A stretch of 64,000 bases of DNA, taken from positions 135,265 to 199,264 of the forward strand of contig PQXB01000001.1 of the NCBI GenBank assembly GCA_003194425.1, read 5' to 3'. Made by a program: the position numbers and the translations under genes. Below are positions 1,432 through 52,560 of the stretch, in pieces. The notes beneath the pieces were generated by a model, which worked only from the letters and a program-made list of their open reading frames with translations, had not been told where the DNA came from and made no database searches. The DNA comes from Candidatus Methanophagaceae archaeon. Its GTDB lineage: Archaea; Halobacteriota; Syntropharchaeia; Alkanophagales; Methanospirareceae. How positions within the stretch are numbered: position 1 is the stretch's first letter; each line of letters starts with the position of its first letter.

Positions 1432-2637
1432 TCAGAGTGAGAGTCGCTTCTCAAACCTCGTCAGGTTCTCGCACCCGCCCTTCAAGACCAGCACCAAATC
1501 CTCCAGCCGAACGCCGCCCACTTCGGGGTCGTACAACCCCGGCTCAATTGTAACCACATTCCCACTTCGCAGCAGGTAGTCGTTCTCGCCAACGCTGGGA
1601 GTTTCGTGCAAATCCAACCCCACGCCGTGCCCGGTGGAATGAATAAACCCGGTTTTCGAGCCTTTTCTAACCGTCCCGTAACCCCTCTCCTCAAAGACCT
1701 CGCAGACCCTGTTGTGCACCTCTCGGCAGGTTACACCCTCTTTCACAAGCCCTAAAGCAGCGTCTTGAGCGTGCTTGACCGCCTCGTACATTTCTTGCAC
1801 CTCCTTTGCAGGCTCGCCCTTGACCACGGTTCTTGTCATATCCGCAAAATACCGCTCTGACTTCAGTCTCGGGAAAATGTCGATGACCACGGGTTCGTTC
1901 GCGAGAATCGGACCGCTGCCAGTAAAATGCGGGTCGGCAGCTCTTTTTCCACACGCCACGATCGGCTCTCCGCCGTCGCAGTTGCACCCGGAATCAATTA
2001 AATCGTGCTCAATGCAGGCTTTCACTCTTTCGGAGGTTAGTTTTTCAGAGGTCAGTTTTGAGACGGATTTTATCAGGGCTACGGCGGTCTGCATTGCGTG
2101 CTCGCAGGCTCGCTGTGCCTTCCGAATGCAATTTATTTCGTACTCATTTTTCGTCTCTCGCTCTTTTGTTATTTCTGTCTCACCGCCTGCTGCCGTTTCG
2201 CCCGCCACCACTTCTACTTCCACGCCCCTCTTCCGCAGTTCCTCGGCTGTGTAGAGCGGAAAATACCTCGGCACCTCCACCGCGTTCAGTCCCTCCTGTT
2301 GAAGAATTCTTAGAAGAAGCTCTTCGGTTTTTAGGTTTGGGTTGTAGCCGTAGTCGAGCGTAGAGCGGACTTCTTTTGCGGTTGTCTCCTTTCTCGCCCG
2401 TTCGTACTCCATTTGCGAGACGACGAGAATGTCTTTTTCTTCGTGGGGAGCGGAGGATGGAGTGGAAGCGGAGGGAAGAGTGGATGAGGGAGTGGAAGCG
2501 GAGGGAAGAGTGGAGGAGGGAGTGGAAGCGGAGGGAAAGCGGAGGTAAATAAAAGGGTCTGCGGCGAGGAAGTGAGAGGCGTAAAACATATCAGCGTTGT
2601 GCGTGCTCTCGCTGACCATTAAAAGAGGTTTTTTCAT
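1432..2637 (-). CDS. M24 family Xaa-Pro aminopeptidase/dipeptidase
   Basis: Pita-bread C-domain motifs (HSTGHGVGLDLHE, VVTIEPGLY). The N-domain carries an in-frame (STPSSTLPSA)x3 repeat. Confidence 0.8.
   Translation of the reverse strand: MKKPLLMVSESTHNADMFYASHFLAADPFIYLRFPSASTPSSTLPSASTPSSTLPSASTPSSAPHEEKDILVVSQMEYERARKETTAKEVRSTLDYGYNPNLKTEELLLRILQQEGLNAVEVPRYFPLYTAEELRKRGVEVEVVAGETAAGGETEITKERETKNEYEINCIRKAQRACEHAMQTAVALIKSVSKLTSEKLTSERVKACIEHDLIDSGCNCDGGEPIVACGKRAADPHFTGSGPILANEPVVIDIFPRLKSERYFADMTRTVVKGEPAKEVQEMYEAVKHAQDAALGLVKEGVTCREVHNRVCEVFEERGYGTVRKGSKTGFIHSTGHGVGLDLHETPSVGENDYLLRSGNVVTIEPGLYDPEVGGVRLEDLVLVLKGGCENLTRFEKRLSL
2440..2530. repeat. 30-nt tandem repeat x3 inside the M24 peptidase CDS (in frame)
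   Basis: ggagtggaagcggagggaagagtggatgag-like unit repeated three times, encoding the STPSSTLPSA repeats. Confidence 0.8.
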
Positions 2638-2696
2638 CGTGCTTCCTATTTATTTCTTTTCCTATTTATTTTTCAGAGATAAGAAAATAGTTAAGA

Positions 2697-4034
2697 ATGA
2701 AAATTGGAGTGGTAATTCACGGACCCGAGGTAGTGGACGAAGGCGAGGCGGAGGAGGCGGTAAAACGGCTGAAGGCTGCGAACGCGGGGTTTAAAGTAGA
2801 AGCGGCTTTGGGCGGAATAACAGGTAAAACCGCGGTTGTTGACGCAGGCTTACGGCGTCTAATTGACATCAGTAAGGACTTGAGACCCTCTGAAGTAGTG
2901 CGGGATTTTGTCGCTCGGGGAATAGATTTTGTCGTCTTGGTAAATCGTGCGAAGACCAGCGAGAGCGGGTTTCGGCTCGGCGAGGGGATTCTGCGGAATT
3001 TCTTCGCGACTGGCGGTACTGGCGGTACTGGCGGTACTGGCGGTACTAAAGGCGGTGCAACGGCAACGGCGAAGATTTCGTTTCTGCAGTTGGAATTCTG
3101 TGGCAGGAGGATTCTTCGTTGGGTCGTGAAGCCCGGGGACGAGGAGGTGTGTAAAAGGCTGACAAGAGTTTTTAGCGAGTTTAGGGTTGAAGAGGTTGCG
3201 GAGAGCAAACACGAACTCGGGTCGAGGTCGAGGTGCCGAAGAGACGCTCGTTCGGGTTTAGTGTACCGCGAGATAAGAGGAGTGAGTCCCGGTGAGAAAA
3301 TCGTTGTGGACGGCGTAGTTGTCGGAGTGGCGTCGCAGGCTAACGCGGTTACGTTGGTTGCGAGGGAGGGGCGACTCGTAGAAATTCTGGGCGGCACGTT
3401 GATAAAGCACAACCTTGAAAAGCTGCCGAGTTTGGATCTGGAGCGGGAGATGGTTAAGACTGCGAGTGTAATTCGGAGGACGAGACCGAGAAGGAGGGGG
3501 AAAAAAGAAAAGTCAAAAGGAGGAAAGAGAAAGAAGAAGGCGTGCTTCTTCTACACGGTTGAGGGCATTTTCCCGAGGCTCGTGGGAAGGGGTGCTGGAG
3601 CAGGAGCCGAAGCAGGAGCCGAAGCAGGAGCCGAAGCAGGAGCCGAAGAGGCGGAGGTTGCGGTTGCGGTGACCGTGGGGGACGACACGACGAGCATTGC
3701 CGGCGACATCTTGAAGCGGTTCGGAGTTCGGCTGATTGGGATTACAGACGGCGACGCAGACGGGCTGATTGACGGAATTAAGACAGGAGCGTTGGAGGAG
3801 TACGAGAAGTTTCTGCCGCCTGGCTCGGTGGTAGTGAGGTTGAAACCCGAGACGGACGACCTTGTAGGGCAGCGGGTGAAGGCAGAGATTTTTAATGGAG
3901 GAGAAGAGATTGAGTTGGAAGGAGTAGGGGAAGAAGAAGTTGCGAGGTGGTTTGAGGAGTTGAAGCGTCGGGTGCTTGAGTTGGCAGGCGAGGAGGTTGT
4001 TGGGGTGCTGAGTTCTTCGACTTATGAAGGTTGA
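2697..4034 (+). CDS. Conserved archaeal hypothetical protein (MKIGVVIHGP N-terminus, DUF2117-like). Contains (GGT)4 and (AGAE)4 repeat insertions.
   Basis: Long ORF in the local coding strand pattern with no recognisable catalytic motif. Repeats at 3012-3047 (9 nt x4) and 3598-3650 (12 nt x4). Confidence 0.45.
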   Translation: MKIGVVIHGPEVVDEGEAEEAVKRLKAANAGFKVEAALGGITGKTAVVDAGLRRLIDISKDLRPSEVVRDFVARGIDFVVLVNRAKTSESGFRLGEGILRNFFATGGTGGTGGTGGTKGGATATAKISFLQLEFCGRRILRWVVKPGDEEVCKRLTRVFSEFRVEEVAESKHELGSRSRCRRDARSGLVYREIRGVSPGEKIVVDGVVVGVASQANAVTLVAREGRLVEILGGTLIKHNLEKLPSLDLEREMVKTASVIRRTRPRRRGKKEKSKGGKRKKKACFFYTVEGIFPRLVGRGAGAGAEAGAEAGAEAGAEEAEVAVAVTVGDDTTSIAGDILKRFGVRLIGITDGDADGLIDGIKTGALEEYEKFLPPGSVVVRLKPETDDLVGQRVKAEIFNGGEEIELEGVGEEEVARWFEELKRRVLELAGEEVVGVLSSSTYEG

Positions 4035-4101
4035 AAAGATTTATGTATTTTCAGTTATTTTCAATTTAAATTATGCGTAGGGCGAAAGGGCGAAATTTAG
4101 A

Positions 4102-4674
4102 ATGAAAGAAGAAGAGAAGGAAGTGCTAAAGGTATTGGAAGAGAATGCGAGGCTGAGCTACGGGGAAATTGCGAGGCTGGTCGGAGTGGCGGGCGGGGAA
4201 GCAGGCGGGGAAGCTGGAGGGGAAGCTGGTGGGGAAGCTGGTGGGGAAGTAGGCGGGGAAGCTGGTGGAGAAGCGGCGGTGAAAAAGATTATTTCAGAGT
4301 TGGAGAAGAAGAAAATTATAAAAAAATATACAGTGGTGGCGGACTGGGAAAAGGCGGGAGTAGAGAGCGTGCAGGCGTTAATTGACATAAAAGTCAGTCC
4401 TGAAAGGGAGACTGGGTACGACCCGGTTGCAGAGCGGATTTCGCGGTTTCCAGAAGTGCGGTCGGTGCGGCTGGTCTCGGGCGAGTACGACCTCTCGGTG
4501 CTGGTGGAGGGGAAGACGATGAGAGAGGTTGCGTATTTCGTTGCCGAGAAGATTGCACCGCTGGAGCAGGTTCGGAACACGCTGACGCACTTTTTACTGA
4601 AGACTTACAAGGAGGACGGAGAGATTTACGGCGAGGAGGAGGGGGAGGGGAAGAGGCTGGCGGTGACGCTGTAA
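4102..4674 (+). CDS. Lrp/AsnC family transcriptional regulator (HTH plus RAM domain) with a (GGEA)7 insertion in the HTH turn
   Basis: N-terminal LSYGEIARLVGV...AVKKIISELEKKKIIKKYTVV HTH and a C-terminal RAM/ligand domain (VRLVSGEYDLSVLVEG). 12-nt x7 repeat at 4190-4272. Confidence 0.75.
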   Translation: MKEEEKEVLKVLEENARLSYGEIARLVGVAGGEAGGEAGGEAGGEAGGEVGGEAGGEAAVKKIISELEKKKIIKKYTVVADWEKAGVESVQALIDIKVSPERETGYDPVAERISRFPEVRSVRLVSGEYDLSVLVEGKTMREVAYFVAEKIAPLEQVRNTLTHFLLKTYKEDGEIYGEEEGEGKRLAVTL

Positions 4675-4739: not shown

Positions 4740-5963
4740 ATGTCAAATAAAATAGCCGAGCGGGTGAAAGGGCTAAAAGGCTCGGGCATAAGAGAGTTTT
4801 TCGATGTCGCAGAGCAGATGGAGGGGGCGATTTCGTTGGGCGTCGGCGAGCCTGACTTTGTAACACCCTGGAGCATTCGGGAAGCGTGCATATTTTCGCT
4901 TGAAAAGGGCTACACTTCTTACACGAGCAACTGGGGGCTGCTCGAATTGAGAGAGGCGATTTCCGAAAGGACTTACAGAGAAAGTGGCGTGTTCTACGAC
5001 CCAGAGGGCGAGATTCTCGTGACGACCGGAGTGAGCGAGGCGTTCGATTTGGCGCTGCGTGCGGTTGTCAACCCAGGCGACGAGGTCGTGCTTCACGAAC
5101 CCTCGTACGTCTCCTACAAGCCCTGCACGGTCTTTGCTGGCGGTACGCCGGTCTGCGTGGAGACGCGGGTAGAGGACGAGTTCAAACTGCGGGCGGAGCA
5201 GCTGGCGGAGCGGGTGACCGAGAAGACGAAGGCGGTTGTCCTGAACTACCCAAACAACCCCACAGGAGCGGCGTTGAGCAGGAAGGAGTTGGAGGAGATT
5301 GCGGAGGTTGCGGAGGAGCGGGATTTGGTGGTTATTTCGGACGAGATTTACGGCAGTCTGACTTACGGCGACAACGGAGACAGCGGGGAGCGGGGGAGGG
5401 GGCACACCTGCTTCTCGTCGCTCAACGGAATGCGGGAGCGGACGGTTCTGCTGAACGGTTTTTCGAAGGCTTACGCGATGACAGGGTGGCGGATTGGGTA
5501 CGCTGCGGGAAACCGGGAGCTCTTGGAGGCGATGATGAAAATTCACCAGTACGTGATGCTTTGTGCTCCGATTACGGCACAGAAGGCGGCGCTGGAGGCG
5601 CTGAGCCCGAGGTGCGACTGCGAGACCGAGAAAATGGTCGAGGAGTACAACAGGCGACGGCGGTTAATGCTGGCAGGGCTGCGGGAGGTTGGGCTGGAGT
5701 GTTTTGAGCCGAAGGGTGCGTTCTACACTTTCCCCTCGGTTGAGAGCACGGGCCTCTCGTCCGAGGAGTTTGCAAAGCGGCTGCTCTTGGAGGAGAAGGT
5801 GGTCGTGATTCCGGGAAGCGTCTTCGGGGCTTGCGGCGAGGGGTTCGTGAGGTGCTCTTACGCGGTCTCGCAGTACGAAATAAAAGAGGCGTTGGAGCGG
5901 ATTGGGCGGTTTTTGGAGGGGTTGGAAGGGGGTGGAAGGGGTTTGAGAGGGGAAGGGGTTTGA
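4740..5963 (+). CDS. Class I/II pyridoxal-phosphate aminotransferase (aspartate aminotransferase-like)
   Basis: Aminotransferase class I/II fold by overall similarity (e.g. LNGFSKAYAMTGWRIGY). Confidence 0.8.
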   Translation: MSNKIAERVKGLKGSGIREFFDVAEQMEGAISLGVGEPDFVTPWSIREACIFSLEKGYTSYTSNWGLLELREAISERTYRESGVFYDPEGEILVTTGVSEAFDLALRAVVNPGDEVVLHEPSYVSYKPCTVFAGGTPVCVETRVEDEFKLRAEQLAERVTEKTKAVVLNYPNNPTGAALSRKELEEIAEVAEERDLVVISDEIYGSLTYGDNGDSGERGRGHTCFSSLNGMRERTVLLNGFSKAYAMTGWRIGYAAGNRELLEAMMKIHQYVMLCAPITAQKAALEALSPRCDCETEKMVEEYNRRRRLMLAGLREVGLECFEPKGAFYTFPSVESTGLSSEEFAKRLLLEEKVVVIPGSVFGACGEGFVRCSYAVSQYEIKEALERIGRFLEGLEGGGRGLRGEGV

Positions 5964-5969
5964 GAGGGA

Positions 5970-7235
5970 GTGAAATTGAGAGGGAGTGAAAAAATGTTTT
6001 CGTCGCAGGAGGAACAGGAGGAACAGGAGGAACAGGAGGAGCAGGAGGAACAGGAGGAGGTTTTTGAGAAAGAGCGGAGATATTTGATGCCGACCTACAA
6101 GCGATCGCGGGTCGTGCTGAAATCCGGAAGAGGGGCGGTGGTGAAGGATTTCTCGGGTCGCGAGTACTTGGACTGCGTCGCTGGAATTGCGGTGAACGCG
6201 GTCGGGCACTGCCACCCCGCGGTAGTGAAAGCGTTGAGAGAGCAGGCGGAACGGCTCATTCACACCTCAAATTTGTTTTACACCGAGCCACAAGTAAAAC
6301 TCGCGGAGAAACTTTCGGGACTAACAGGACTGGAGAAGGCGTTCTTCTGCAATTCCGGTGCAGAGAGCGTGGAGGCGGCGTTGAAGTTAGCGTGCAAAGA
6401 AACAGGGAAAACCGGGTTCGTTGCCGCGGAGGGAAGTTTTCACGGCAGAACGCTCGGCTCGCTGAGTGCTACTTTTGACCCGAAGTTCAGAGGCGTGTTT
6501 GAACCTTTGCTTTTGCCTCGGGTGGGGAACGGTGTGAAATTCGTGCCGTACGGCGACGCAGAGGCGATTCGAGCTGCGACTGACGACAAAACCGCTGCGG
6601 TCATTTTGGAGCCTGTTCAGGGCGAGACAGGCGTGATTATTCCCCCCGCGGGCTACTTAAAAGAGGTGCGGGAAATCTGCGACGAGAAAAGGGTCTTGCT
6701 GATTTTTGATGAAATTCAGACCGGGTTCGGTCGTACTGGAAAGTGGTTCTGCAAGGAGCACGAGGGCGTGGAGCCGGATATTTTGACACTCGCGAAGGCG
6801 TTGGGAGCAGGGTTTCCAATCGGCGCGATGCTCGCACGAGAGGGCTTGGAATTTGAAGCCGGCGAGCACGGCTCGACCTTCGGCGGCGGTCCGCTGGCGT
6901 GCTCCGCCGCGCTGGCGTCTGTAAAAGTGATTGAGCGGGAGGGGCTGGTGGATCGGTCGAGAGTGCTGGGTGCGTATTTTTTGGAGCGGTTTGCGGCTGA
7001 GTCCACGGCTGCAGGCTCGGACTCCAACCCTGCAGTGAAGGAAGTGCGGGGCAAGGGGCTGATGATTGGGATTGAATTGGCGAAGCCCTGCGGGGAAGTG
7101 GTCGAGCGGGCGTTAGAAAGAGGCGTTCTGGTAAATTGCACTGCAGAGAGAGTGGTAAGGCTGGTGCCGCCGCTGGTCGTAAGCAAAGAGCAGTTGGACA
7201 AGGTGATTTCGGTCCTGCTCGAATTCATCAAGTAA
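5970..7235 (+). CDS. Class III aminotransferase (acetylornithine/LysJ-type). N-terminal (EEQ)n low-complexity; start uncertain.
   Basis: Conserved DEIQTGFGRTGKWF and TFGGGPLACSAAL motifs. Start may be at the internal ATG 5994 or 6087. Confidence 0.8.
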   Translation: MKLRGSEKMFSSQEEQEEQEEQEEQEEQEEVFEKERRYLMPTYKRSRVVLKSGRGAVVKDFSGREYLDCVAGIAVNAVGHCHPAVVKALREQAERLIHTSNLFYTEPQVKLAEKLSGLTGLEKAFFCNSGAESVEAALKLACKETGKTGFVAAEGSFHGRTLGSLSATFDPKFRGVFEPLLLPRVGNGVKFVPYGDAEAIRAATDDKTAAVILEPVQGETGVIIPPAGYLKEVREICDEKRVLLIFDEIQTGFGRTGKWFCKEHEGVEPDILTLAKALGAGFPIGAMLAREGLEFEAGEHGSTFGGGPLACSAALASVKVIEREGLVDRSRVLGAYFLERFAAESTAAGSDSNPAVKEVRGKGLMIGIELAKPCGEVVERALERGVLVNCTAERVVRLVPPLVVSKEQLDKVISVLLEFIK

Positions 7236-7276
7236 TTTTAATATGTCTAATTAAAATATAATTTAGAGGTTGTAAA

Positions 7277-7987
7277 ATGGAATACGAGATAATTGGGGAT
7301 AATCTCCAGATGGTCGTTGTAAAGATCTCTTCTGGAGAGATGGTTTACGGAGAGGCGGGTGCAATGATTTATATGAGCGAGAATATGGAGATGAACGCGA
7401 AGGCGAAGGGCGGGTTTCTGAAAGGGGTGATGCGAAAATTTGCGGGAGAGTCATTTTTTATGACAGAATTCTCGCCGAAAGGATACGGTTTCGTGGCTTT
7501 TGCCGGCAACGCACCAGGGCGGATAAAAGCGATTGAACTCAGGGGCAACGAGTTCATTGCAATGAACGATGCTTTCTTGTGCGCTCAGGAGGGCGTTGAA
7601 CTCGAGATCAAGGCTGCCTTATCAGCGAAACAGAGAGGGGGGTTGCTGTTCGGTGGAGGACGACCATTTATTCTGGAACGGCTGGGTGGAAGGGGGTCTG
7701 CGTTTATCCACGCCTGCGGCGATTTTGTAGAGATTGACCTTGCACATGGCGAAGTTGTGAAGGTGGACACCGGCTCTATCGTAGGATTCGAGAGCAGCGT
7801 GAGTTACGACATCGTGAGGGCAGGGAACGTAAAGACAATGCTCTTCAGTGGCGAACACTCCTATTTGACTACCTTGACCGGTCCAGGTCACGTGATTCTG
7901 CAGTCAATGACCATGCCGAACTTGGCGGCAGCGCTCAGACCTTTCCTGCCTTCATCTTCAGGAACATCCGAAGGATCCGTAGAGTAG
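7277..7987 (+). CDS. AIM24/TIGR00266 family protein
   Basis: Family-typical MEYEIIG...LQMVVVKI start and beta-rich repeats of DUF124/AIM24 proteins. Confidence 0.55.
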   Translation: MEYEIIGDNLQMVVVKISSGEMVYGEAGAMIYMSENMEMNAKAKGGFLKGVMRKFAGESFFMTEFSPKGYGFVAFAGNAPGRIKAIELRGNEFIAMNDAFLCAQEGVELEIKAALSAKQRGGLLFGGGRPFILERLGGRGSAFIHACGDFVEIDLAHGEVVKVDTGSIVGFESSVSYDIVRAGNVKTMLFSGEHSYLTTLTGPGHVILQSMTMPNLAAALRPFLPSSSGTSEGSVE

Positions 7988-8097
7988 GATCCGAGAGTAG
8001 GTAGTCGCAGTTCAGTATCGAGAGGTTGCAGGGGGTTGAGGTCAAAACAAAAGAAGCACGTTCCGATTTTCAAACGAGCGTCAGGGCAGAAACGCTT

Positions 8098-9220: not shown

Positions 9221-9925
9221 CTATTTCCTGTCCTCTTTTCTGCGGTTGTACAGCACGAATCCAGCGAGTGCGAGCAGTCCGGTACCAAACAAGACCACCG
9301 TCGGCAGCTCTGGCGTTGGGTAGGGGTCGCCACAGGTTGGAGAAGACACAGTGGTTGCTGAGGAGCCCTCTGTATTTATGTACGCCTCCGCACCATCCCC
9401 AGCCATCGAGAGCCTAAGAGCGAGATAATCTCCCTGTGGCACTGTAAACAATGGACAACTCACAACAAAATGGCTAGCACCATCACTGCAGACATTTACA
9501 ATTCCTACGATTGATTTTTCGCACTTTTCGTCGAACTCTCCTGTGCTGTGGTCGAGGATTCCAACTTTCGCTGTAACCGTTTCGGTACTATCGAGATAAC
9601 CACTACACTCCGCATCAATAGGCTCATAATCGAGATGTACAACCCAGTTTCCCGCGCAGAAGGAAACCTCGCATTGAGCCGATTCGTTTGCACTCCAGGT
9701 AAATGAGTCGGTCTCATTTAACCAGAAATCATTTGAAGTTCCCGTTCTCGCTCCTCTCGTCATCCAATAATTTGCTCCAGCTGGAACTTCTGTTTCATTT
9801 GTAGTTGGGTACCACGTGATGCTCACCGCGCTCGCCGTTCCGACCACCGAAACCAGCACTACCGCTGCTACCAAAAAACTTACAACCGCTTTTTTCGTTT
9901 CTGTTTTCGTTTCTGTTTTGTTCAT
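9221..9925 (-). CDS. Secreted protein with a PEL-CTERM-like tripartite sorting signal
   Basis: Signal peptide, Cys-rich domain, C-terminus PTPELPTVVLFGTGLLALAGFVLYNRRKEDRK (P-E-L + TM + RRK). Shares GD(Y/W)LA(L/V)RLS with 38791-39513. Confidence 0.65.
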   Translation of the reverse strand: MNKTETKTETKKAVVSFLVAAVVLVSVVGTASAVSITWYPTTNETEVPAGANYWMTRGARTGTSNDFWLNETDSFTWSANESAQCEVSFCAGNWVVHLDYEPIDAECSGYLDSTETVTAKVGILDHSTGEFDEKCEKSIVGIVNVCSDGASHFVVSCPLFTVPQGDYLALRLSMAGDGAEAYINTEGSSATTVSSPTCGDPYPTPELPTVVLFGTGLLALAGFVLYNRRKEDRK

Positions 9926-37033: not shown

Positions 37034-37037
37034 AGCG

Positions 37038-43945: not shown

Positions 43946-44014
43946 TTTCCTTTACCTCTTAGGCATTGCATAACTTCGGTATCCACTCGAGTTCACACAT
44001 CCTCAAAATAAGTT

Positions 44015-44452: not shown

Positions 44453-46285
44453 CTATGTGCGATCGATACACGTATATCTAAATTTCTTTTTTACATTCCA
44501 CACTTTCACTACTGCCCATGTTAAGGCAAGGAACCATGCACTTGGTGAGATTATCTTAGCAAGGATAGCTGAGATAATACACACAACAATAAAGAGCCCT
44601 ATTTCGCCACCCATTAAGAATTGTTTTTCTTTTTCGACCTTGGATTTACACATAGCAATTATTTCATTCTCCTTAATTTCATTCTCCTTATCCCTCTCCT
44701 TGTTTTTTACATCTGACTCAACAACACCTAACGCTTTTTTAATTTTGCCAACTTCTGTTAGACATTGATCTTCACGTTTTTTGTCTTCTGCTATATTAAA
44801 CACCTTGCTAAGTGATTCTAAACAATTTACTAATGTAATACTATCGCCGCATTGCTTAGCATAGCCACCAGCTACAAACAATCTTTTCTGAGCTAAATCC
44901 ATTCTACCTTTCCTTAGATAGCATAGCCCCGCAGCGTAGCTGGAAAGTCCAAGACAATAGGGGTCATAGGTTTTTCCAGAAAGCCATGAAGTCCAGAACA
45001 GAGGATCATTCCCCCTCCACTCCCACTCACCCGGAATCTTGGCAACCATCATGCTGAGGCACTCGATTACCTCCCTATGCCGTCCCATATTCATATACCG
45101 ATCTGCGGTTTTTAATAAGGATTCAAGTGCTTTTTCATACTCTTTTAGAACAATCAGCGCAAGCCCATGATTCTTTAGTGCCTTAGTAACAAGCCATGGA
45201 TCATCACTTCCACGGATGATCTTATCTGACTGTGCTGCAATAAAAGTAGCTTCCTCCTTTGATGGGTCAAGAAGAATTATTTCAGAAAAGAAGTTCTTCC
45301 ATGCCATTTCATTGATACCCGAAGCCCACCTGAGTAGGAATTTATTTTGGCGAGTTTTCATTTTATCTTCTTTACCCTGATCATATTTTTCGTCGGCGTC
45401 TTTATCTAAGAGTCTTGCAAAAATACTCTTTTGGTCCGCGCCTACTAATTTACAATTAGGGCATTCGCGACCAAAAGCTTTGATGTTACCTGTTAGGCTG
45501 ACCTCATTATTCCGCAGCACCCAATAAACACCCTTCGCCGTTTTGGCAGTGCTTAGGATTACTGGAAAAATATCATCGTCGTTGCCACTGTATCCTACAA
45601 TTAAAACGGTGTAGGATCTAAAGACGACACGAAGAAGGTCTGAAAGATCTTTTTTTAGATTAAGTCCTGCCAGTCTAAGAGTAAATATTATGCTTGCTTT
45701 TTCGTCTAAAGTGCCATGAAGCTTAACTACGGGCAGGTGTGACTCGTCTGACCCCTTATTATTCAAGGAGTTTAACAAGCCTTGACGCACAGAATTCACA
45801 TAAAGTTTGTATTTATTAAGGCTTACTTTCTCTAATGCTTTCTCTATATATGTATCAAAATTCGTTGTTAGGACAATTGGTATCTTATATTCACGAGCGA
45901 TATATGCGATATTGGAGTGGTTGCAATTGGGTATGCCCATATTCAAAATATCTATAAAACCAAAGAAATTCTCTCGAAGATTACTATGCAAAATTTGACA
46001 GAACAATTCAGGTTTTATTCTTTTTGTACGACAATTAATAAAACTGTGGAAGTCATCAAGTCCGCTGTGTGCACTTTTTGCGGAATCTATTACAAGATCC
46101 ATTAGCTCCTTCGAGAGTGGACAAGAGGAAGGAGGATCCTTAGAAATCCCCGCACCCACAAAGATAACAAGTTCATTCGACTTTGCTTTTTTAAGCTCTT
46201 GAACAGCACTCTCAAGATCAACCAACTCTCTTAATTCATTTTTTACCATATCTTGCCTTTGACAATTATCTTTTTCTTTAATCAT
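44453..46285 (-). CDS. SIR2_2-domain protein with TPR-like helical middle region and 1-2 C-terminal TM helices (candidate NADase effector)
   Basis: SIR2_2 motifs VIFVGAGIS, VLTTNFD, VVKLHGT. C-terminal IGLFIVVCIISAILAKIISPSAWFLALTWAVV. Confidence 0.7.
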   Translation of the reverse strand: MIKEKDNCQRQDMVKNELRELVDLESAVQELKKAKSNELVIFVGAGISKDPPSSCPLSKELMDLVIDSAKSAHSGLDDFHSFINCRTKRIKPELFCQILHSNLRENFFGFIDILNMGIPNCNHSNIAYIAREYKIPIVLTTNFDTYIEKALEKVSLNKYKLYVNSVRQGLLNSLNNKGSDESHLPVVKLHGTLDEKASIIFTLRLAGLNLKKDLSDLLRVVFRSYTVLIVGYSGNDDDIFPVILSTAKTAKGVYWVLRNNEVSLTGNIKAFGRECPNCKLVGADQKSIFARLLDKDADEKYDQGKEDKMKTRQNKFLLRWASGINEMAWKNFFSEIILLDPSKEEATFIAAQSDKIIRGSDDPWLVTKALKNHGLALIVLKEYEKALESLLKTADRYMNMGRHREVIECLSMMVAKIPGEWEWRGNDPLFWTSWLSGKTYDPYCLGLSSYAAGLCYLRKGRMDLAQKRLFVAGGYAKQCGDSITLVNCLESLSKVFNIAEDKKREDQCLTEVGKIKKALGVVESDVKNKERDKENEIKENEIIAMCKSKVEKEKQFLMGGEIGLFIVVCIISAILAKIISPSAWFLALTWAVVKVWNVKKKFRYTCIDRT

Positions 46286-47361
46286 AGATAGCCTCTATCG
46301 AATATAGCAGCAGTAGGAATTCTTTTACGCACTTCGGACAGAAGGATTTTTTCATCACGCTTTGACAGGGTCGAGGTATTGTATGCCCACCTAAGTCCGT
46401 TTTTTGAATATAAAACCAGAAGCCTGTCAGTTCCAGAAATAATGTTATGCCTTTCGCGTAGGGTTGCTTTCTCAATATCTGACCACCGCAAGCCAAATGG
46501 CCTGCCTAAACCGGAAATAAAAATTCCTTCATCAAGTAATGTTATCTTTTGTAAATGTACAATAATTGTTTGAAGAATAAGATAAAGGGAGGATAATCCC
46601 CCTAAAACGCCCAAGAGGATACTAATTAATCCTGTTTTTTCATACCTGAACCTGATATAAATCAGTAATAAGGCTGTTACAGCGGGGGAAATAGTCCAAA
46701 TAAATGACCGAATAAACGAACGCATAGTTGGTTTAAAAGTTTGACCCATAATCTTTGGTAGAGCAGGGGGTTGGTGACCTTTTATGTACTTTACTAATTC
46801 TCCTATGGTTGTGCCGTAAGGGAAACTTAGCATAAACAGAAACAGCGATAATTCGCCCAGTAGCTGACCCTCTAAGTTTACAAGGCTCCAAATAAAGAGA
46901 TAAAAAGATGAAGTGAGTAAGGCAATAATTGGAGCTCTTTTGTAGAGATGAAAGCCCATTAGTTCAAACATCAGGCTCATCTTATCTGTCCAATCTATAT
47001 TTTCAGTAAGAAAGATTCTCTCCATTTCGACACCCTTTTCAAGTTCAATCAATTGTGCTGCCCGAAGATTATATTCCTCATCCCTTAGCTTAATTCTCTG
47101 CGAAAATGTATCGAATGGATTAATAGAAACTCGTGTTGACCGGCCACAAATATAACCTATTGCAAAAGGAATTGCTACTGTTATTATTCCCAATGGATGA
47201 AAAGGTGCCAAAAGAAAAGAGATTATGATGGCTACTAAATGAGGAACTCCAGCACGCCTAATTCTAAATATTTTGAAAATGACCCAGAAGAATACAAAAC
47301 TTACGCACAAAGTGGTGCCTATGACATACAAAAGTGTCATGTTCTCGTTCATGGTAATCAT
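46282..47361 (-). CDS. Polytopic membrane protein with a C-terminal soluble (PH-like) domain, in operon with the SIR2 gene
   Basis: At least 6 predicted TM helices; 4-nt overlap with the SIR2 gene. Confidence 0.5.
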   Translation of the reverse strand: MITMNENMTLLYVIGTTLCVSFVFFWVIFKIFRIRRAGVPHLVAIIISFLLAPFHPLGIITVAIPFAIGYICGRSTRVSINPFDTFSQRIKLRDEEYNLRAAQLIELEKGVEMERIFLTENIDWTDKMSLMFELMGFHLYKRAPIIALLTSSFYLFIWSLVNLEGQLLGELSLFLFMLSFPYGTTIGELVKYIKGHQPPALPKIMGQTFKPTMRSFIRSFIWTISPAVTALLLIYIRFRYEKTGLISILLGVLGGLSSLYLILQTIIVHLQKITLLDEGIFISGLGRPFGLRWSDIEKATLRERHNIISGTDRLLVLYSKNGLRWAYNTSTLSKRDEKILLSEVRKRIPTAAIFDRGYL

Positions 47362-47367
47362 CTCCTT

Positions 47368-47853
47368 CTATTCTCTTTGTGCTTTGATAATACTATCGAG
47401 AATAATAGAGCAAATTATCCCTCCTGTATACCCTATACTTGGCGCAAGGAGAAAAAAGATAGTGTTGAATTTTAAAATGCCAATAGCCTCAAGCCATTCT
47501 TGGCCGATATCTTTGTTAATGAAGAATGATAATGCGGCAGAAAGAATAGCTATGTTAGCCATAACTATACAAAACCACCCAATACCAAAGAATTTTGCAG
47601 GTGTCAAGATATCAGAACCCATTGCTGAATAAGATAATACGGAAATACTTGAAAATCCGATTCCGAAGATAACGGCAATCACAGGATAAATCACCAACAA
47701 CATTTTCATTTTATTTTCGTACTCTCCGAGGATCTCCCATGAGTTGCTGATTGTACCTTGAAATATTTCCATTGCAATCCACAATGTTAAGTAGAAAAAG
47801 AACAAGTAGCCAAATATAAAGCCGAAGGTTGATGCTTTACTTATTTTTTGCAT
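47368..47853 (-). CDS. Four-TM membrane protein, hypothetical
   Basis: Hydrophobic throughout; 6-nt gap downstream and 13-nt overlap upstream within the operon. Confidence 0.45.
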   Translation of the reverse strand: MQKISKASTFGFIFGYLFFFYLTLWIAMEIFQGTISNSWEILGEYENKMKMLLVIYPVIAVIFGIGFSSISVLSYSAMGSDILTPAKFFGIGWFCIVMANIAILSAALSFFINKDIGQEWLEAIGILKFNTIFFLLAPSIGYTGGIICSIILDSIIKAQRE

Positions 47854-48677
47854 TCTGATTCATCTGCCTTTGAGCTTTTAATCTGTTTGATTTCATCCAG
47901 CATACTTTCTGTTAGTTTTATGTCTTCATATTTTCCTATTTCTCTGTCTATATAAAGACTACGTTCATATTTCTCTTTCGCCATCTCATATTTTCCCTGA
48001 ATATGCTCTATTTCGGCGAGCCTAAAGATAGCACCGCTTATGACAGAAAGTATTTCATGGTTGTTTGGTGACTTGCTGTTCAGTGATTCCGCAATCACAA
48101 GTGCCTTTTCTACTGCCCCGGCTGCTTTGTCTAAATACTGCTGCTGACGATACAGAAGCGACAACTGATAATAAACAGCTACAACGTTTAATTCATGGCA
48201 GATAGATTCCGCATCTGTTTCAGACTTACTCGTAAGACGCTTCTGAATTTCGAGAGCTTGGAGATATAAGAACTCCGCCTTTTTCAACCTATTATTATTC
48301 CGAAGCTCTTCAATGAATTTTTTGGATCTTGGATTGTGCCAGTTTCCGGTGTAAGTGGTCTCATGGAGAAACTTGGCACGGTTATAGAGACGCTGAGATT
48401 TCGGAGTAAGAAATCGAGAGATAAAAAAGACAATTAGTCCACACATAGGAAACGAGATGCTTTCCCAAGAATTGAGGGAGAATTCCAATTTACCGATTGA
48501 CTGCCACACCATCATTCCAATAAAGCAAAATAGAGCAAATGTTACTTTTTTGTTTTTCTGACCCTCCAATCCTAACCTTATCCAACCTTTCTTCCCAATT
48601 TCCCAACCAATCAAAGCATTTGCTATTAATCCCACTACAATAAAGCAATACAGATCGAAAATAAATTGTTGTGTCAT
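47841..48677 (-). CDS. Membrane-anchored TPR-repeat protein (3 N-terminal TM plus TPRs)
   Basis: N-terminal TM helices followed by TPR-like AEFLYLQALEIQKRL / AVYYQLSLLYRQQQYLDKA repeats. Confidence 0.5.
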   Translation of the reverse strand: MTQQFIFDLYCFIVVGLIANALIGWEIGKKGWIRLGLEGQKNKKVTFALFCFIGMMVWQSIGKLEFSLNSWESISFPMCGLIVFFISRFLTPKSQRLYNRAKFLHETTYTGNWHNPRSKKFIEELRNNNRLKKAEFLYLQALEIQKRLTSKSETDAESICHELNVVAVYYQLSLLYRQQQYLDKAAGAVEKALVIAESLNSKSPNNHEILSVISGAIFRLAEIEHIQGKYEMAKEKYERSLYIDREIGKYEDIKLTESMLDEIKQIKSSKADESECKK

Positions 48678-48716
48678 TTTTTTATGTTATTTCCAAACTT
48701 GAGCTCGCACACACTT

Positions 48717-50975
48717 TTATTTATCATCAGAACCCTTCTCTGTTACCAACCTCGGCACGAGCGTCGAGTACCGCCCCAACTGAATCCCGTATTTTTTGTT
48801 GTACTCTGCCATTTCCATCAGTTCGCCAGACCTGTGCCTCGCCCGTTTTATCCGCATTCCCTCAATCTCCCACCCGTGCTCCTCCTTCAACTTCCGCAGC
48901 AACTCCGCCCGCCGCATCACATGCAACTCCTGCTCGGACCGCACGAACAAGTGCCAGTCGTCTGAATATTCGCCAAAGAAATTTTTGTAAGCCTCGTTCT
49001 CCGCCTCCAGACTCGCAAGCCTGGGGTCTCGCAAGGCAAGCGGGCGGTGCAGCAGTTTCGCACTCATCGCGATCGCCTCCTCCTTCGTCTCCACCGGCAC
49101 GAGCATGTGCACTGGACACGGTTCGACCTCCTTCTTCTCACCCGTCACACCGTCGTACATCCACCACTTGCTCCTGTCGTTTTTGTCGCCCAGGAAGAAC
49201 CGCTTGAAGTTGCTTGAACACGAAGGTGAACACGAAGGTGAACACGAAGGTGAACACGAAGGACCGACGACGACAGGAATGCCCGACCTGACGAGACCCG
49301 ACGCAACCGCGAACATCGTCTCCGTCCACGCACCCCAAATTATCGCGACCACGGGCAGCCGAGCGTAGAGGTAGTCGGCAATCTGCGTCCAGTTCGCTTT
49401 CGGCACGTAGCCACTCCCAACCAACGCACCGCGGTAGACCGCAGCAGGAACGTGCGAAATCGCAGTGCAGCCCCCGAAATTCACCAACCCCTTCAGCACT
49501 CCAGCCGCGATGTACTGCTCGAACAAGAACTTCCGCCCCCCTTCCTCCTCGTCAAAATACTTCGCAACGTCCGCAGCAACGCAGCCCGAAACCGTGACAA
49601 GAGCGTTCCGCTCCAGAAAATACCTCGCAATTTCCGCTACTTCTTTCCCGTTCCCTGAACCCTCGCAGTCTCCGCGGTCTCCACAGCCCAGAATATTTAT
49701 CATTCCCGGCCCGTTCCCGCCTAAAATAATCCCGAAGGTCAGGTCCCGCCACTCCAACTCCGACATCGGACCCCGCCCAGCCCGCATAAGAAACTTGTCT
49801 TGCTTTATTTTACCTTTTTTCTTTGGTATTTTTTTCACCCCCACCACCAGCCGAACAGCGAGTTCGCCCGCCTTCTCTGGACCAGAAATTCGCACGCCCG
49901 GCAGGTCCTTCTCCAACACCTCGCTGACCAAATCCTGCACCGTCTTCGCTGACCTCTCCTCTAACTCCAAATCCAACCCGCAGGCGACCACCTTCGCACC
50001 CACCCGCTTCGCCTCCTCTAAAACATCAAGCTCAAAGCACAATTCTCCGCTGACCACGACCACATCGGGAATGCCTGCTCTGAAAACCTCCCTCGCCTTC
50101 ACCGCCGACGCGAGAACCTTTCCGCGTTTGTAAAATCTTGGAATGTCGTGCCCCACCGCACCGACGCCGCAAATTTCTACCGCCTCCTCCAATCCCGCTC
50201 CCGACCTTCTCAAATACTCAACCGCGAACCACGCCGGCAAGAAATCGCTGCCAAGAAAGACCACAACCGGCTTGCTCGTGTCAGCCGCACCGAGACCAAC
50301 TTCGGTCTCGACCGGCGGGAAGTCAGTGTACTCGGTCGCAGGACGCGTGCCTGCGTTGTAGAACCCGAAGCAGCACATTTTTAGCGTCTCTGCAATTTCC
50401 ATCGCGAGAAATGTAAGCGAGCCCGCGTGCAACGCCTTCTCTTCAAATTCCTCCGCACTCTCTCCGCCCTGTTCTTGAGCGAGAAGCAATTTTGAGAGCT
50501 GCGATTCCGCGTAGCACAACGCCCTCTCCGCCTCGCCCAAATCTTTCGTGTAAAACCCGGTCAGCAGTGAGGTGTTCATTGAGGGGTAGGTAACTGACTT
50601 CCCAATCTCAAGTTCCTTCTCTCGCCCAAACCGTTCTACCGAAAAATCAAGCAGACGCCTCGCAACCCCCAACTGCCGAGACAGCCCTTTACAAGCCTCC
50701 TGCAAACTCTGCCTCGCTTGCTTCGCCTGCTCTTCCTTTTTCAGCTTTTCTTCCTTTTTCAGATTTAGTTCGGCGTTCGCGTAGACCGCGGGGTACCTGT
50801 TCAGAAGCACGCTGTCCCACTCTTCGATGTCCGCAGCGTCTGCAAAAATGTTCAACCTCGGCTTCCACTGTTCCAGCTGTCCTCGCTCGCCCATTTCCCT
50901 GAGTATTTCGCGGGCGATTCGTTCCTTCTCTTTCTCTTTCTCCTTCTCTTCCCCCTTCCCCTTCTCTTCCTCCAC
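48717..50975 (-). CDS. Large (752 aa) conserved hypothetical protein with KE-rich N-terminus and a (PSCS)4 repeat
   Basis: Long GC-rich ORF with coding-like composition. 12-nt x4 repeat at ~49207-49262. No family confidently recognised. Confidence 0.5.
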   Translation of the reverse strand: MEEEKGKGEEKEKEKEKERIAREILREMGERGQLEQWKPRLNIFADAADIEEWDSVLLNRYPAVYANAELNLKKEEKLKKEEQAKQARQSLQEACKGLSRQLGVARRLLDFSVERFGREKELEIGKSVTYPSMNTSLLTGFYTKDLGEAERALCYAESQLSKLLLAQEQGGESAEEFEEKALHAGSLTFLAMEIAETLKMCCFGFYNAGTRPATEYTDFPPVETEVGLGAADTSKPVVVFLGSDFLPAWFAVEYLRRSGAGLEEAVEICGVGAVGHDIPRFYKRGKVLASAVKAREVFRAGIPDVVVVSGELCFELDVLEEAKRVGAKVVACGLDLELEERSAKTVQDLVSEVLEKDLPGVRISGPEKAGELAVRLVVGVKKIPKKKGKIKQDKFLMRAGRGPMSELEWRDLTFGIILGGNGPGMINILGCGDRGDCEGSGNGKEVAEIARYFLERNALVTVSGCVAADVAKYFDEEEGGRKFLFEQYIAAGVLKGLVNFGGCTAISHVPAAVYRGALVGSGYVPKANWTQIADYLYARLPVVAIIWGAWTETMFAVASGLVRSGIPVVVGPSCSPSCSPSCSPSCSSNFKRFFLGDKNDRSKWWMYDGVTGEKKEVEPCPVHMLVPVETKEEAIAMSAKLLHRPLALRDPRLASLEAENEAYKNFFGEYSDDWHLFVRSEQELHVMRRAELLRKLKEEHGWEIEGMRIKRARHRSGELMEMAEYNKKYGIQLGRYSTLVPRLVTEKGSDDK

Positions 50976-50997
50976 TGCCTCTTCCTCCGCGGGGTTG

Positions 50998-51234
50998 TTA
51001 AAAAATATCCACCTCTGCCACGCAGTTCGGACAGACGACCCGCTTTTTTACCGCTTCTCCTGTAATTCCGGGGGTCGTAACGCCTTTTATTCGGTGCGCA
51101 GGGTGCGTGTCTTCCACCGTTACCTCCACCGAGCAGGTTTCACACAGCGGAACGCCGCAGAGACTGCACTTCGCTCTCGCTTCCCGCTCTTTACAAACTC
51201 CGCAAACGCCGCAAACGCCGCAAGCCTCTCCCAT
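50998..51234 (-). CDS. Small Cys-rich zinc-ribbon protein with a (CGV)3 repeat
   Basis: CGVCGVCGVC...CSLCGVPLCETC...CPNC motifs. Confidence 0.4.
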   Translation of the reverse strand: MGEACGVCGVCGVCKEREARAKCSLCGVPLCETCSVEVTVEDTHPAHRIKGVTTPGITGEAVKKRVVCPNCVAEVDIF

Positions 51235-51285
51235 CTTTTCTACAAATCATTTAAAAAATAAAAAATTGTTAGGAACAATTCAGCA

Positions 51286-52560
51286 ATGAAAAAAGAAGAG
51301 GTTCTCTTCTCTGCGGAGGAGTGCGAATTCAGAGCCGAGTTGCGAGATTTTCTTGAGCGCGAGGACGCGAAGGGGGCAGAGCGGGAAATATTTGAGCAGG
51401 ATTTTTATCCGCGGGAACTTTACGAGCGGTTGGGGAAAGCGGGTTTCTTGGCGCCGGTGCTGCCCGCGGAGTTCGGCGGTAAGGAAGAGGAAGGCGGGAG
51501 TAAAAGAGGAGGGAGTGAGGGAGGGGGTAAATTGGTGTACGAGGCGGTGTTGGCGGAGGAGCTCGGTGCTGCCTGCGTGCCGCTTGCCTGGATTCACTCA
51601 ACCTCCTCCTACGCCTACGCGACGATTTTGAGGTACGGGAGCGAGGAGCAGAAGAGGCGGTTCTTGCCCGCGATGAAACGGGGCGAGAAGGTCGGTGCTG
51701 TCGCGATAACCGAGCCAGAGGCGGGGAGCGACGTAATGCGGATTCAGACGAGGGCGGAGTTGCGAGCGAGAGGCGGTGAATTTCTGTTAAGCGGCGAAAA
51801 GCGAAACATCACAAACGGGAGCCAAGCAGACTTGCTTTTGGTCTGGGCGGTGACGAACCCCGAGGTTGACCCTGCGCGGGGGCTGAGCGTTTTTATCGTG
51901 GAGCCTGGTGAAGGTGGAGGACCTGGTGAAGGTGGAGGAGAAGGGTTTGAAGTAGTGGAGGATTTCAAGTTGTTAGGCGGGTTTCCGGGGACTGTAAATT
52001 CTCGCCTGCGGTTTGACGAGTTGAGCGTGCCGAGGGGGAACTTGCTCGGCGAAGAGAGCGGGGAGAACGCGGGAGCGAGGATTTTGTTCGACGAGCTCAC
52101 GGTTGAGCGGGTCTTGTACGCGGCGATGCTGGTCGGCGAGGCGAGACCTGTGCTCGAACTCGCAGCGGACTACTCGGCAGAGCGGGAGCAGTTCGGAACG
52201 CAAATAAGCAGGTTCGAGGCGGTGAGCTTCAAAATCGCAGACGCAGCTGCAAAGTTAGAGGCTGCAAAGTTGATGATTTTTTACACTGCGAGGTTGCTCG
52301 ACGCGGACGCGGGCTTCAGTGCAGAGAAGGAGTCAGCAATCTCGAAACTGCTCGCTTCCGAGGCGTTCTACGAAGTCGCTCACAGCACCCTCCAAATTCT
52401 CGGCAGCAGAGGGGTCTCCGACGAGTACCCTGCTGAGTGGGCGTTCAGAATGGCGAGGCTCTCAATGATTCCCGCAGGGACGAACGAGATTATGCGGTTC
52501 ATCGTGCAGCGCGAGATTTACAAGGAGCGCAAGGAGCGTAAGCGTAAGACAAAAACATGA
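51286..52560 (+). CDS. Acyl-CoA dehydrogenase (second copy) with Gly/Glu-rich insertions
   Basis: ACAD domain motifs ([11 protein letters not shown]). 21-nt x2 repeat at ~51898-51945. Confidence 0.8.

Follow-up and report, generated by a model that had tools for sequence, protein, structure and literature searches.

The stretch of DNA analyzed here (the window; 64 kb, positions 135,265 to 199,264 of contig PQXB01000001.1) is a chromosomal segment of a Guaymas-type hydrothermal archaeon of the anaerobic methanotrophic lineage ANME-1 (Methanophagaceae), and our subject is the short tandem repeats that run through its genes and spacers. Three window proteins are exactly matched by PXF51014, PXF51031, and PXF50990, which come from the same metagenome-assembled genome (MAG) and a 1.19-Mb contig, and the counterparts of these three in ANME-1 cluster archaeon ex4572_4 are 99 to 100% identical. 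The latter organism is listed as Methanophagaceae gen. nov. 3 and was obtained from a Guaymas Basin microbial mat at 50 to 80°C (PMC9012536). Pfam scans of ~60 open reading frames (ORFs) identified CdhD, an M24 peptidase, a DUF2117 protein, an Lrp/AsnC regulator, two aminotransferases, the mtrEDCBA(F)GH operon, FrhB-like and Nuo51-like proteins, QueE, eIF2-gamma, two acyl-CoA dehydrogenases (ACADs), phosphoglucomutase, AcnX, a beta-helix surface protein, a low-GC defense island, a Prismane-like protein of 752 amino acids (aa), and an R.HinP1I-type restriction-modification (R-M) pair. Because core functions are encoded (CdhD, the Mtr operon, eIF2-gamma, and QueE) and the MAG contig reaches 1.19 Mb, the segment is chromosomal rather than extrachromosomal.

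Repeats were located with Tandem Repeats Finder (TRF; period of at least 6, score of at least 50, overlapping rows merged out) and with a separate scan for perfect repeats. TRF returned 41 arrays in the window after overlap removal, and the perfect-repeat scan found 30 arrays of at least 24 nucleotides (nt). A first-pass annotation had described in-frame tandem repeats in at least 14 coding sequences (CDSs) between positions 2440 and 51950; the two procedures agree on an array at every locus that it listed, and translation places all of them in frame. The tally can be extended to 21 of ~69 CDSs, including about ten coding arrays that had gone unlisted (GH130 [24 nt x3.7], an ATP-grasp gene [18 nt x2], eIF2-gamma [15 nt x2], a nitrite/sulfite reductase-like [NIR_SIR] gene [54 nt x2.7], IGPS [24 nt x2.3], a SIR2 gene [15 nt x2], two more in the Prismane-like gene, orf9221, and orf55710), and arrays occur not only in that interval but across the whole window.

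Head-to-tail repetition on this scale lies well beyond chance. In a control that kept the codons of each gene and permuted their order, 30 shuffles gave 2.7 ± 1.2 arrays (maximum, 5), versus the 41 observed. These shuffles rule out chance as the source of the arrays, along with a leaning of TRF toward periods divisible by three (3n) in coding DNA. Exact duplications of 12 to 27 nt within 64 kb cannot be reached by chance or composition alone.

Unit lengths follow the reading frame. On a curated gene map, 25 of the 26 arrays within CDSs have 3n units, compared with 4 of the 9 intergenic arrays and 2 of the 6 that straddle a gene end. The 3n share thus differs between coding and intergenic arrays (Fisher P = 0.002, or 1e-4 when the edge arrays are pooled with the intergenic ones), and the coding share departs from an expectation of one-third (binomial P = 2e-11). 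This comparison had been proposed, for the whole genome, in the first-pass annotation, and its statement that non-coding repeats come in arbitrary lengths holds up. A 3n bias of coding repeats, together with its selective explanation, is textbook knowledge. Intergenic DNA makes up ~7% of the window but carries 9 of the 41 arrays (15 with the six gene-end straddlers); arrays are therefore several-fold denser, ~4 to 5 times relative to coding DNA, where there is no frame to protect.

The arrays also differ between strains. We compared the window with 16 syntenic conspecific loci (designated by L numbers) that came from independent NCBI, ENA, JGI, and Logan assemblies and were 96 to 99.5% identical to it. 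In pairwise alignments, length differs at nearly every array, and protein clusters built at 90% identity hold alleles whose differences inside the repeat are whole units, the rest of the sequence being 98 to 100% identical. For instance, an 8-residue unit occurs two or three times in members of the QueE cluster, where smaller variants are also seen, and the (GGEA)n units of Lrp number 2, 4, 6, and 7 across alleles and 0 in other ANME-1. Whole-unit copy-number variation between close strains, which had been suggested as a test, is accordingly evident in the clusters, in the 16 loci, and in the Lrp series. Pooled over these loci, there are 61 unique insertions or deletions (indels) of 6 to 100 nt, at least 31 of which are exact or near-exact copies of adjoining sequence; most of the remainder are gains or losses of several units in these arrays. 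The indels show the same 3n enrichment as the units, with 42 of 46 coding indels being 3n versus 3 of 15 in intergenic DNA or a pseudogene (Fisher P = 4e-7); the few non-3n coding indels are either located at gene ends or paired so that they compensate each other, the pairs falling in two ORFs of poor conservation. L008 and L009 are separated by 10 single-nucleotide polymorphisms over 20.5 kb, yet by five repeat-length changes, and therefore the arrays mutate hundreds-fold faster per locus than a nucleotide site.

The comparison of assemblies also bears on whether the arrays could be artefacts of metagenome assembly or consensus calling in low-complexity, purine-rich DNA, a concern that the first-pass annotation had also raised. 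All sequences are MAGs or metagenome contigs, repeats are known to cause assembly error, and collapsed repeats occur in assemblies of Borgs (PMC9879509). However, the arrays recur at matching positions across more than 15 independent assemblies, most of them span 24 to 100 nt and so fall below the read length and the 141-mer of k141 contigs, and they differ by exact whole units with the frame kept. Artefacts would ignore reading frames and gene boundaries, unlike the pattern observed, and we judge this explanation to be so extremely improbable that it can be excluded.

The only non-3n array inside a CDS is a 22-nt duplication in the gene for the R.HinP1I-like restriction endonuclease (REase). 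The proposal that it frameshifts the gene is borne out, as evidenced by the removal of one copy, which joins a 77-codon upstream ORF (ATG at 52557) to the R.HinP1I domain and restores a 280-aa protein. The further proposal that it is the single non-3n repeat in a gene is true of arrays lying inside CDSs but overlooks a 17-nt duplication (5934-5968) that runs into the class I/II aminotransferase gene at its 3' end; this one covers the last ~10 codons, alters only the C-terminal tail, and is single-copy in L008 and L009. The 22-nt duplication is found in the window and L022 and is absent from L017, L018, L021, and L024. A different, perfect 14-nt duplication occurs in L021 and L024, a 1-nt deletion occurs in L018 and L024, and the gene is intact in L017 (280 aa). 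While the endonuclease has been inactivated variously across strains, the N6_N4 methyltransferase of the R-M pair (52557-54224) is intact. The REase gene appears to be under relaxed selection, and its frameshift looks like decay rather than a reversible switch. The presence of 22-nt and 14-nt duplications in this gene therefore indicates that duplication is not intrinsically limited to 3n lengths and that the restriction is imposed afterwards. As separate observations, the methyltransferase gene of L018 has a 291-nt deletion, and L015 and L019 lack the entire R-M pair at its site between ACAD2 and AcnX.

High repeat density is restricted to one lineage. TRF arrays and perfect repeats number 6.4 and 4.7 per 10 kb, respectively, in the window and 8.2 and 6.1 per 10 kb in 188 kb of conspecific loci. 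The corresponding values for other ANME-1 are 0.85 and 0.12 (83 kb; DUF2117 protein 50 to 63% identical) and 0.66 and 0.13 (75 kb; zinc-ribbon protein 71 to 76% identical), and those for Escherichia coli K-12 (50 kb) are 0.2 and 0. The nearest outgroups (39 kb; Lrp 75 to 79% identical; one MAG labelled ANME-1c) hold one array in total, or 0.0 to 0.5 TRF arrays per 10 kb. Other ANME-1 lineages thus have ~10-fold fewer TRF arrays (197 kb) and ~40-fold fewer perfect ones (158 kb, the set used for perfect repeats). Also, ~15 kb of conspecific DNA that is non-syntenic with the window (in L020) shows the same density (7 to 9 per 10 kb) and the same frame rule, and the repeats are therefore a property of the genome and not of this region.

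These comparisons, together with the shuffles, make it very hard to accept that the pattern is ordinary, that is, that 3n-biased genic repeats are universal and that the excess here is a by-product of the purine-loaded, low-complexity codon usage of a thermophile. The 3n bias of coding repeats is indeed general (PMC6749651), the coding strands here are purine rich (57%), and TRF does favor 3n periods in coding DNA; nevertheless, codon-preserving shuffles remove nearly all arrays, composition alone cannot yield the exact duplications, related ANME-1 loci (the ANME-1c-labelled one included) have 10 to 40 times fewer arrays, and most prokaryotes have 0 to 3 satellites per Mb (PMC6749651). ANME-1c is a thermophilic clade (PMC9539880), and the low array densities of the ANME-1c-labelled MAG and the close outgroups weaken thermophily or purine loading alone as a cause. 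If that label is right, then thermophily alone is no explanation.

Comparison with orthologues indicates that the inserts are a derived state in the proteins that carry them. Outgroup orthologues of the DUF2117, M24, DUF357, zinc-ribbon, and Lrp proteins are without the insert; for example, the repeat is absent from zinc-ribbon orthologues of 72 aa that are 71 to 76% identical. Coding inserts lie at termini or in loops, and their peptides are hydrophilic, being rich in Glu, Gly, Lys, Ala, and Ser, with predicted disorder. The repeat peptides contain 25% E, 17% G, 12% K, 10% A, and 9% S, compared with 9% E, 9% G, and 6% K in all window proteins. In ACAD1, the repeat contributes to a middle-domain loop of 30 extra residues relative to solved structure 5ol2_C. 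In Lrp, comparison with structure 7fby places the insert precisely in the helix-turn-helix turn, after helix 2 and before the recognition helix; an AlphaFold2 model keeps the flanking helices (residues 20-27 and 52-69) and assigns a confidence score (pLDDT) of <50 to residues 31-53. The turn of this regulator is an unexpected site for a 26-residue, copy-number-variable loop.

Clues to mechanism come from the units and their junctions. No unit was found outside its own array in the window, and arrays share only low-complexity 10-mers. A dispersed mobile element or a shared repeat family can be ruled out, every unit being locus-unique. Units are biased toward polypurine/polypyrimidine sequence (mean fraction, 0.80 versus 0.65 for random segments; P = 5e-9), and 42% of them, versus 6% of random segments, are at least 85% one class (purine or pyrimidine). 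This bias extends to intergenic arrays, which sit in long AG-rich leaders, and the sense-strand composition of the units is 40% G and 32% A. For the junctions, we assembled 35 isolated perfect two-copy duplications with units of at least 12 nt from the window and the conspecific loci. Flanking homology is 0 nt in 17 and at most 1 nt in 24 of the 35, which is close to what is expected without microhomology (0.56 for 0 nt); classical microhomology-mediated duplication is thus not supported for most young events. The first-pass annotation had invoked an active slipped-strand or duplication process filtered by selection. Activity and selection are both supported, and slippage fits the changes in existing arrays but not the birth of young two-copy duplications: because the youngest of these are mostly without flanking microhomology, they did not originate by classical slippage between direct repeats.

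Intercistronic and leader regions, above all those of the mtr operon, consist of long sense-strand tracts made up almost wholly of A and G (25020-25120, 26742-26858, and 28418-28489; also 37033-37138 and 9925-10066). These tracts contain several Shine-Dalgarno-like motifs (GGAGG/GAGG), are tandemly duplicated, vary in length between strains, and might influence translation or mRNA stability.

We consider it very probable that the arrays reflect high-rate, short, local tandem duplication in one lineage, that selection filters them by frame, and that most are passengers. In this explanation, a segment of ~8 to 30 bp is duplicated head to tail, always locally and with locus-unique units, and the youngest products are the exact two-copy duplications, mostly with 0 to 1 nt of microhomology. 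From two copies upward, whole-unit copy number changes fast, as is observed between near-identical strains. Selection then leaves almost only 3n units inside functional genes, which is the step that the statistics capture, and tolerates any length in spacers, at the very 3' terminus of a gene, and in the decaying REase gene. The initiating event may be an error of replication or repair, for example, mis-processing of flaps or during strand displacement, or a template switch at a polypurine/polypyrimidine tract, and a lineage-specific trait of the replication/repair machinery may raise its rate; the repeats would mostly be neutral or slightly deleterious passengers and not designed features. 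We infer two stages, in which mostly blunt de novo duplication of 8 to 30 bp, favored in homopurine tracts, would be followed, from two copies on, by rapid gain and loss of units through slippage or unequal exchange. Possible biochemical sources are flap mis-processing, the filling in of staggered breaks, and template switching where purine tracts are structured. In general support, the spontaneous mutation spectrum of Sulfolobus acidocaldarius includes tandem duplications and deletions (PMC7785828).

It could be argued instead, as it has been for the amino acid tandem repeats of Borgs, that the repeats are a selected functional feature, with a lineage mechanism installing in-frame repeats for disorder, tunable linkers, or regulatory RNA and with copy number being adaptive. 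The strong lineage specificity would suit this idea, as would the density, 3n rule, locus-unique units, fast turnover, and disorder-promoting composition, all of which fit the description of Borg repeats (PMC9879509). However, the hosts are unrelated housekeeping enzymes (a peptidase, an aminotransferase, ACADs, QueE, eIF2-gamma, and GH130), and an insert in the helix-turn-helix turn of a regulator is unlikely to be beneficial. Some arrays are constant in length among the sampled strains, e.g., that of eIF2-gamma, and intergenic arrays occupy the purine-rich leaders of a highly expressed operon, in which Shine-Dalgarno-like motifs occur; nevertheless, arrays are densest in non-coding DNA overall, similar non-3n duplications turn up exactly where selection is relaxed (the REase pseudogene and a gene 3' end), and neither a shared motif nor an associated enzyme was seen. 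On balance, we regard adaptive installation as improbable.

Several points nonetheless count against the view that a raised duplication rate produces mostly passenger repeats throughout the genome. The purine and hydrophilic bias of the coding repeats could stem from selection, mutation, or both, and some arrays may be functional, for instance, the mtr polypurine spacers with Shine-Dalgarno-like motifs or disordered linkers. Flanking extensions of at least 4 nt occur in 8 of the 35 duplications, some of them partial third copies, and 35 loci are a small sample. Approximately 80 kb of distinct genome was sampled for the focal species, which makes "genome-wide" an extrapolation, and all comparison sequences are metagenome consensus assemblies, so that copy numbers are population consensus values. 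Finally, nothing within the 64-kb window points to an altered replication/repair gene behind the raised rate.

The closest known parallel is found in Borgs, whose tandem repeats are perfect, locus-unique, and fast evolving, encode disorder-promoting peptides, and occupy on average 0.62% of the genome (Schoelmerich et al. 2023, PLoS Biol, PMC9879509). All in-ORF units in Borgs are 3n, versus 14 to 38% of intergenic units, and Black Borg has 56 repeat regions in 0.90 Mb, while Borg-type repeats are "virtually absent" from Methanoperedens host chromosomes (PMC9879509). Under Borg criteria as implemented here (perfect, at least 3 units, and at least 50 nt), the window and its conspecifics have 47 to 53 regions per Mb covering 0.25 to 0.33% of bases, so that density is of the same order and the base fraction is about half. 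Further shared traits are units that are locus-unique, head to tail, perfect, recent, and population-variable; 3n lengths in ORFs but not intergenically (here 4 of 9); disorder-promoting residues; and a host that is an anaerobic methane-oxidizing archaeon. In contrast, the repeats described here reside on a chromosome of ANME-1, which belongs to a different order of archaea (mtr, cdh, eIF2-gamma, and tRNA-modification genes), and not on a giant linear extrachromosomal element of Methanoperedens, their bias is toward G+A polypurine sequence rather than the adenine enrichment of Borgs, and their hosts are mostly cytoplasmic housekeeping enzymes instead of extracellular or membrane proteins. Also, the young duplications are mostly without the flanking partial repeats seen in Borgs (0 to 1 nt here).

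A bolder proposal, which we think rather unlikely, is that one ANME-1 species lineage acquired a Borg-like repeat-generating activity, in the form of an altered replication/repair component or a dedicated enzyme, that would make blunt, microhomology-independent duplications at polypurine tracts at a rate hundreds-fold above per-site substitution. If true, then the "Borg" type of repeat would belong to particular archaeal replication systems and not to Borgs as such, and the gene behind it could be sought by comparing chromosomes within ANME-1.

Contingency loci, the phase-variable simple sequence repeats of bacterial pathogens, are another class of hypermutable tract that changes length between close relatives. 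They mostly have non-3n units of 1 to 8 nt in promoters or 5' coding regions, concern surface or R-M genes, and act as on/off switches. Here, by contrast, the units are 9 to 30 nt, in frame, and in housekeeping genes, and the REase frameshift is one of several inactivating lesions of that gene, the others being carried by other strains. Variable-number tandem repeats and satellites of prokaryotes provide a second comparison. A survey of 261 prokaryotes reported medians of 0 to 3 satellites per Mb; Methanosarcina was among the few groups rich in them, and many satellites lay in genes (Subirana & Messeguer 2019, PMC6749651). The likeness lies in tens of arrays per Mb in a minority of lineages, many of them genic and encoding 3n amino acid repeats, with lineage-specific abundance. 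However, ANME-1 and strain-level turnover were outside the scope of that survey, whereas nearly all loci here are polymorphic at ~99% identity, and many of the events are two-copy duplications below the usual satellite thresholds. Finally, microhomology-mediated tandem duplications (MTDs) are events of ~10 to a few hundred bp that take one copy to two, are reversible and expandable, and have been proposed to be replication associated through Okazaki-fragment maturation (10.64898/2026.02.28.708716). The arrays behave likewise, in that short segments go from one copy to two, revert, and expand to multiple copies. The difference is that arms of at least 4 bp define the MTD class and that only ~25 to 30% of strain-variable microbial duplications are reported to be without arms (10.64898/2026.02.28.708716), whereas 17 of the 35 duplications here have no flanking homology and 24 have at most 1 nt, in a small sample.

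We found no earlier description in the literature on ANME-1 or Methanophagales and tandem repeats; a study of ANME-1 strain variation discarded variants of ≤50 bp (PMC13385816). The underlying principle is already known, and what is new is the chromosomal ANME-1 setting, the Borg-like density, and the mostly blunt, microhomology-free duplications. The window is informative chiefly because mutation and selection can be seen apart in it: mutation is unfiltered in the spacers, at a gene end, and in a decaying gene, while working genes retain 3n hydrophilic loop inserts. Next in importance, Borg-like density is not limited to Borgs but is also found on the chromosome of another methane oxidizer, in one lineage only. 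Given this restriction, a comparison with repeat-poor sister genomes could reveal the responsible difference in replication or repair. There are practical consequences too. Approximately 30% of genes in the species carry length-polymorphic inserts, which defeat exact-match protein look-ups (7 of 10 window proteins were unmatched, although start-codon choice may contribute), inflate apparent divergence (88% identity for Lrp, which is otherwise ~99%), and can split genes in annotation. At the same time, the variable arrays are usable as high-resolution strain markers for uncultured ANME-1 populations.

The arrays are listed locus by locus in Table 1. Of the 14 unit lengths given in the first-pass annotation, 10 stand; the unit is 24 nt and not 27 in queE, 18 nt and not 21 in both ACADs, and 69 nt and not 66 in the beta-helix gene, and all of these are still 3n. 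The 27-nt duplication that had been attributed to queE is real but intergenic, lying between queE and the eIF2-gamma gene. The repeat in what had been called an ACT regulator (11226 locus) is present, but the protein has no Pfam hit and is named "amino acid-binding protein" by NCBI. The beta-helix array had been grouped with the others and is 3n like them, but it is an older, ordinary structural protein repeat of a separate class: the protein matches PF13229 (E = 8e-76, 4 stretches) and NosD (PF05048; E = 3e-52) and has a 23-aa period in translation.

Table 1. Tandem repeat arrays of the window, with unit length, copy number, encoded peptide, and variation among conspecific loci (L numbers) or homologues
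Feature	Position	Strand	Description
M24 peptidase	2448-2545	-	30 nt x3.3, (PSASTPSSTL)n; L008/L009 minus one unit; outgroup orthologues without it
DUF2117 gene, array 1	3009-3047	+	9 nt x4.3 perfect, (TGG)n; L008/L009 minus one unit; 7 homologues without it
DUF2117 gene, array 2	3599-3648	+	12 nt x4.2 perfect, (GAEA)n; L009 +1, L008 +2 units; homologues without it
Lrp/AsnC regulator	4192-4283	+	12 nt x7.8, (GGEA)n; in helix-turn-helix turn
Aminotransferase junction	5934-5991	+	17 nt x2 next to 16 nt x2, both perfect and non-3n, where the two aminotransferase genes meet
Class III aminotransferase	6006-6058	+	9 nt x5.9, (EEQ)n, N-terminus; L008/L009 minus three units
196-aa "amino acid-binding protein"	11226-11297 (TRF 11226-11282)	+	12 nt x4.8, (SA[EK]G)n; cluster alleles 192/196/200 aa
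ATP-grasp gene	13668-13703	-	18 nt x2 perfect; L008/L009 single-copy
GH130, C-terminal	18750-18838	-	24 nt x3.7 (12 nt x6.9), Glu/Arg/Gln/Lys-rich (EQERER...); L008/L009 54 nt shorter
GH130, second array	19600-19633	-	12 nt x2.8 perfect, (DGTG)n; L009 minus one unit
mtrH upstream spacer	25039-25114	intergenic	23 nt x3.0, polypurine/polypyrimidine; non-3n, length-variable
mtr operon spacer	26747-26819	intergenic	non-3n, length-variable
mtr operon spacer	28427-28476	intergenic	non-3n, length-variable
Radical-SAM QueE	34162-34210	+	24 nt x2 perfect, (RGREKGRG)n; three copies in four other strains; more variants in 90% cluster
queE/eIF2-gamma spacer	34370-34423	intergenic	27 nt x2 perfect; L010/L012 single-copy
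eIF2-gamma, domain II	34892-34921	-	15 nt x2 perfect; no length difference in four spanning strain loci
Acyl-CoA dehydrogenase 1	36318-36384	+	18 nt x3.8, (EKSG[EV]R)n; L011 one unit shorter
ACAD1/phosphoglucomutase spacer	37027-37089	intergenic	15 nt x4.1, all-purine; five strains 20 nt shorter
Upstream of SNase gene	39558-39599	intergenic	13 nt x3.2 perfect; four strains 12 nt shorter
DUF357 gene	41968-42023	-	18 nt x3.1 perfect, (GAASAA)n; four strains minus one unit; outgroup orthologue without it
752-aa Prismane-like gene, array 1	49215-49262	-	12 nt x4.0 perfect, (SCSP)n; strains -1, +1, or +2 units
Prismane-like gene, 12-nt unit TCTCTGCCCTGT	50461-50473	-	single-copy in window; 1 to 6 extra copies in other strains (+12 to +72 nt)
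Prismane-like gene, N-terminus	50923-50973	-	18 nt x2.8, Glu/Lys-rich; four strains 18 nt shorter
78-aa zinc-ribbon gene	51194-51223	-	9 nt x3.3, (CGV)n; cluster alleles 75/78 aa
Acyl-CoA dehydrogenase 2	51904-51939	+	18 nt x2 perfect, (PGEGGG)2; L024 single-copy
R.HinP1I-like REase	52767-52810	+	22 nt x2 perfect, frameshifting; gene 52557-53421
Beta-helix/NosD protein	59563-60239	-	69 nt x9.9, 84% matches, 207-nt super-period; 23-residue coils
NIR_SIR gene, N-terminus	62827-62964	-	54 nt x2.7 imperfect, Glu/Lys-rich; beyond the range of the first-pass annotation

Some further features of the window and its relatives deserve mention. GC content is 51 to 53% in the focal species versus 42 to 47% in all other sampled ANME-1 loci, and the coding strands of the focal species are strongly purine-loaded, with a GC skew that tracks gene orientation. 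A low-GC island at 43200-48700 (37.7% GC across 44-48 kb, versus ~52% elsewhere) encodes a PIN protein, a 610-aa SIR2_2-domain protein, two unannotated ORFs, and a TPR protein. Conspecific loci L015, L016, L020, and L022 are without this island, and in them the Prismane-like gene is separated from the N6/N4 methyltransferase gene by one for a ThaI-type restriction endonuclease; the island looks like a swappable defense-island slot.

Other differences in gene content were found between conspecific loci. The AIM24-family gene at 7277-7987 (region 7218-8080) is present in the window and absent from L008 and L009, a presence/absence polymorphism of ~0.8 kb, and in these two loci an EpsI-like gene directly follows the class III aminotransferase gene. 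L015 and L019 have a 665-bp insertion relative to the window at 56113, at the 5' end of a 146-aa ORF downstream of AcnX, which adds several small called genes. The window also encodes a HicB-like/HicA-like toxin-antitoxin pair (15389-15873), which is followed by a DUF4258 gene (16026-16331) with an Arg/Lys codon run at its end; hicAB operons of ANME-1 have been the subject of a recent experimental study (PMC13385816). Within the mtr operon, MtrA (25489-26421) matches both MtrA and MtrF in Pfam, its C-terminal domain being MtrF-like, and is followed by a separate 62-aa MtrF-like ORF; the Glu/Lys-rich extension at the N-terminus of MtrG (95 aa) is 15 nt longer in L012.

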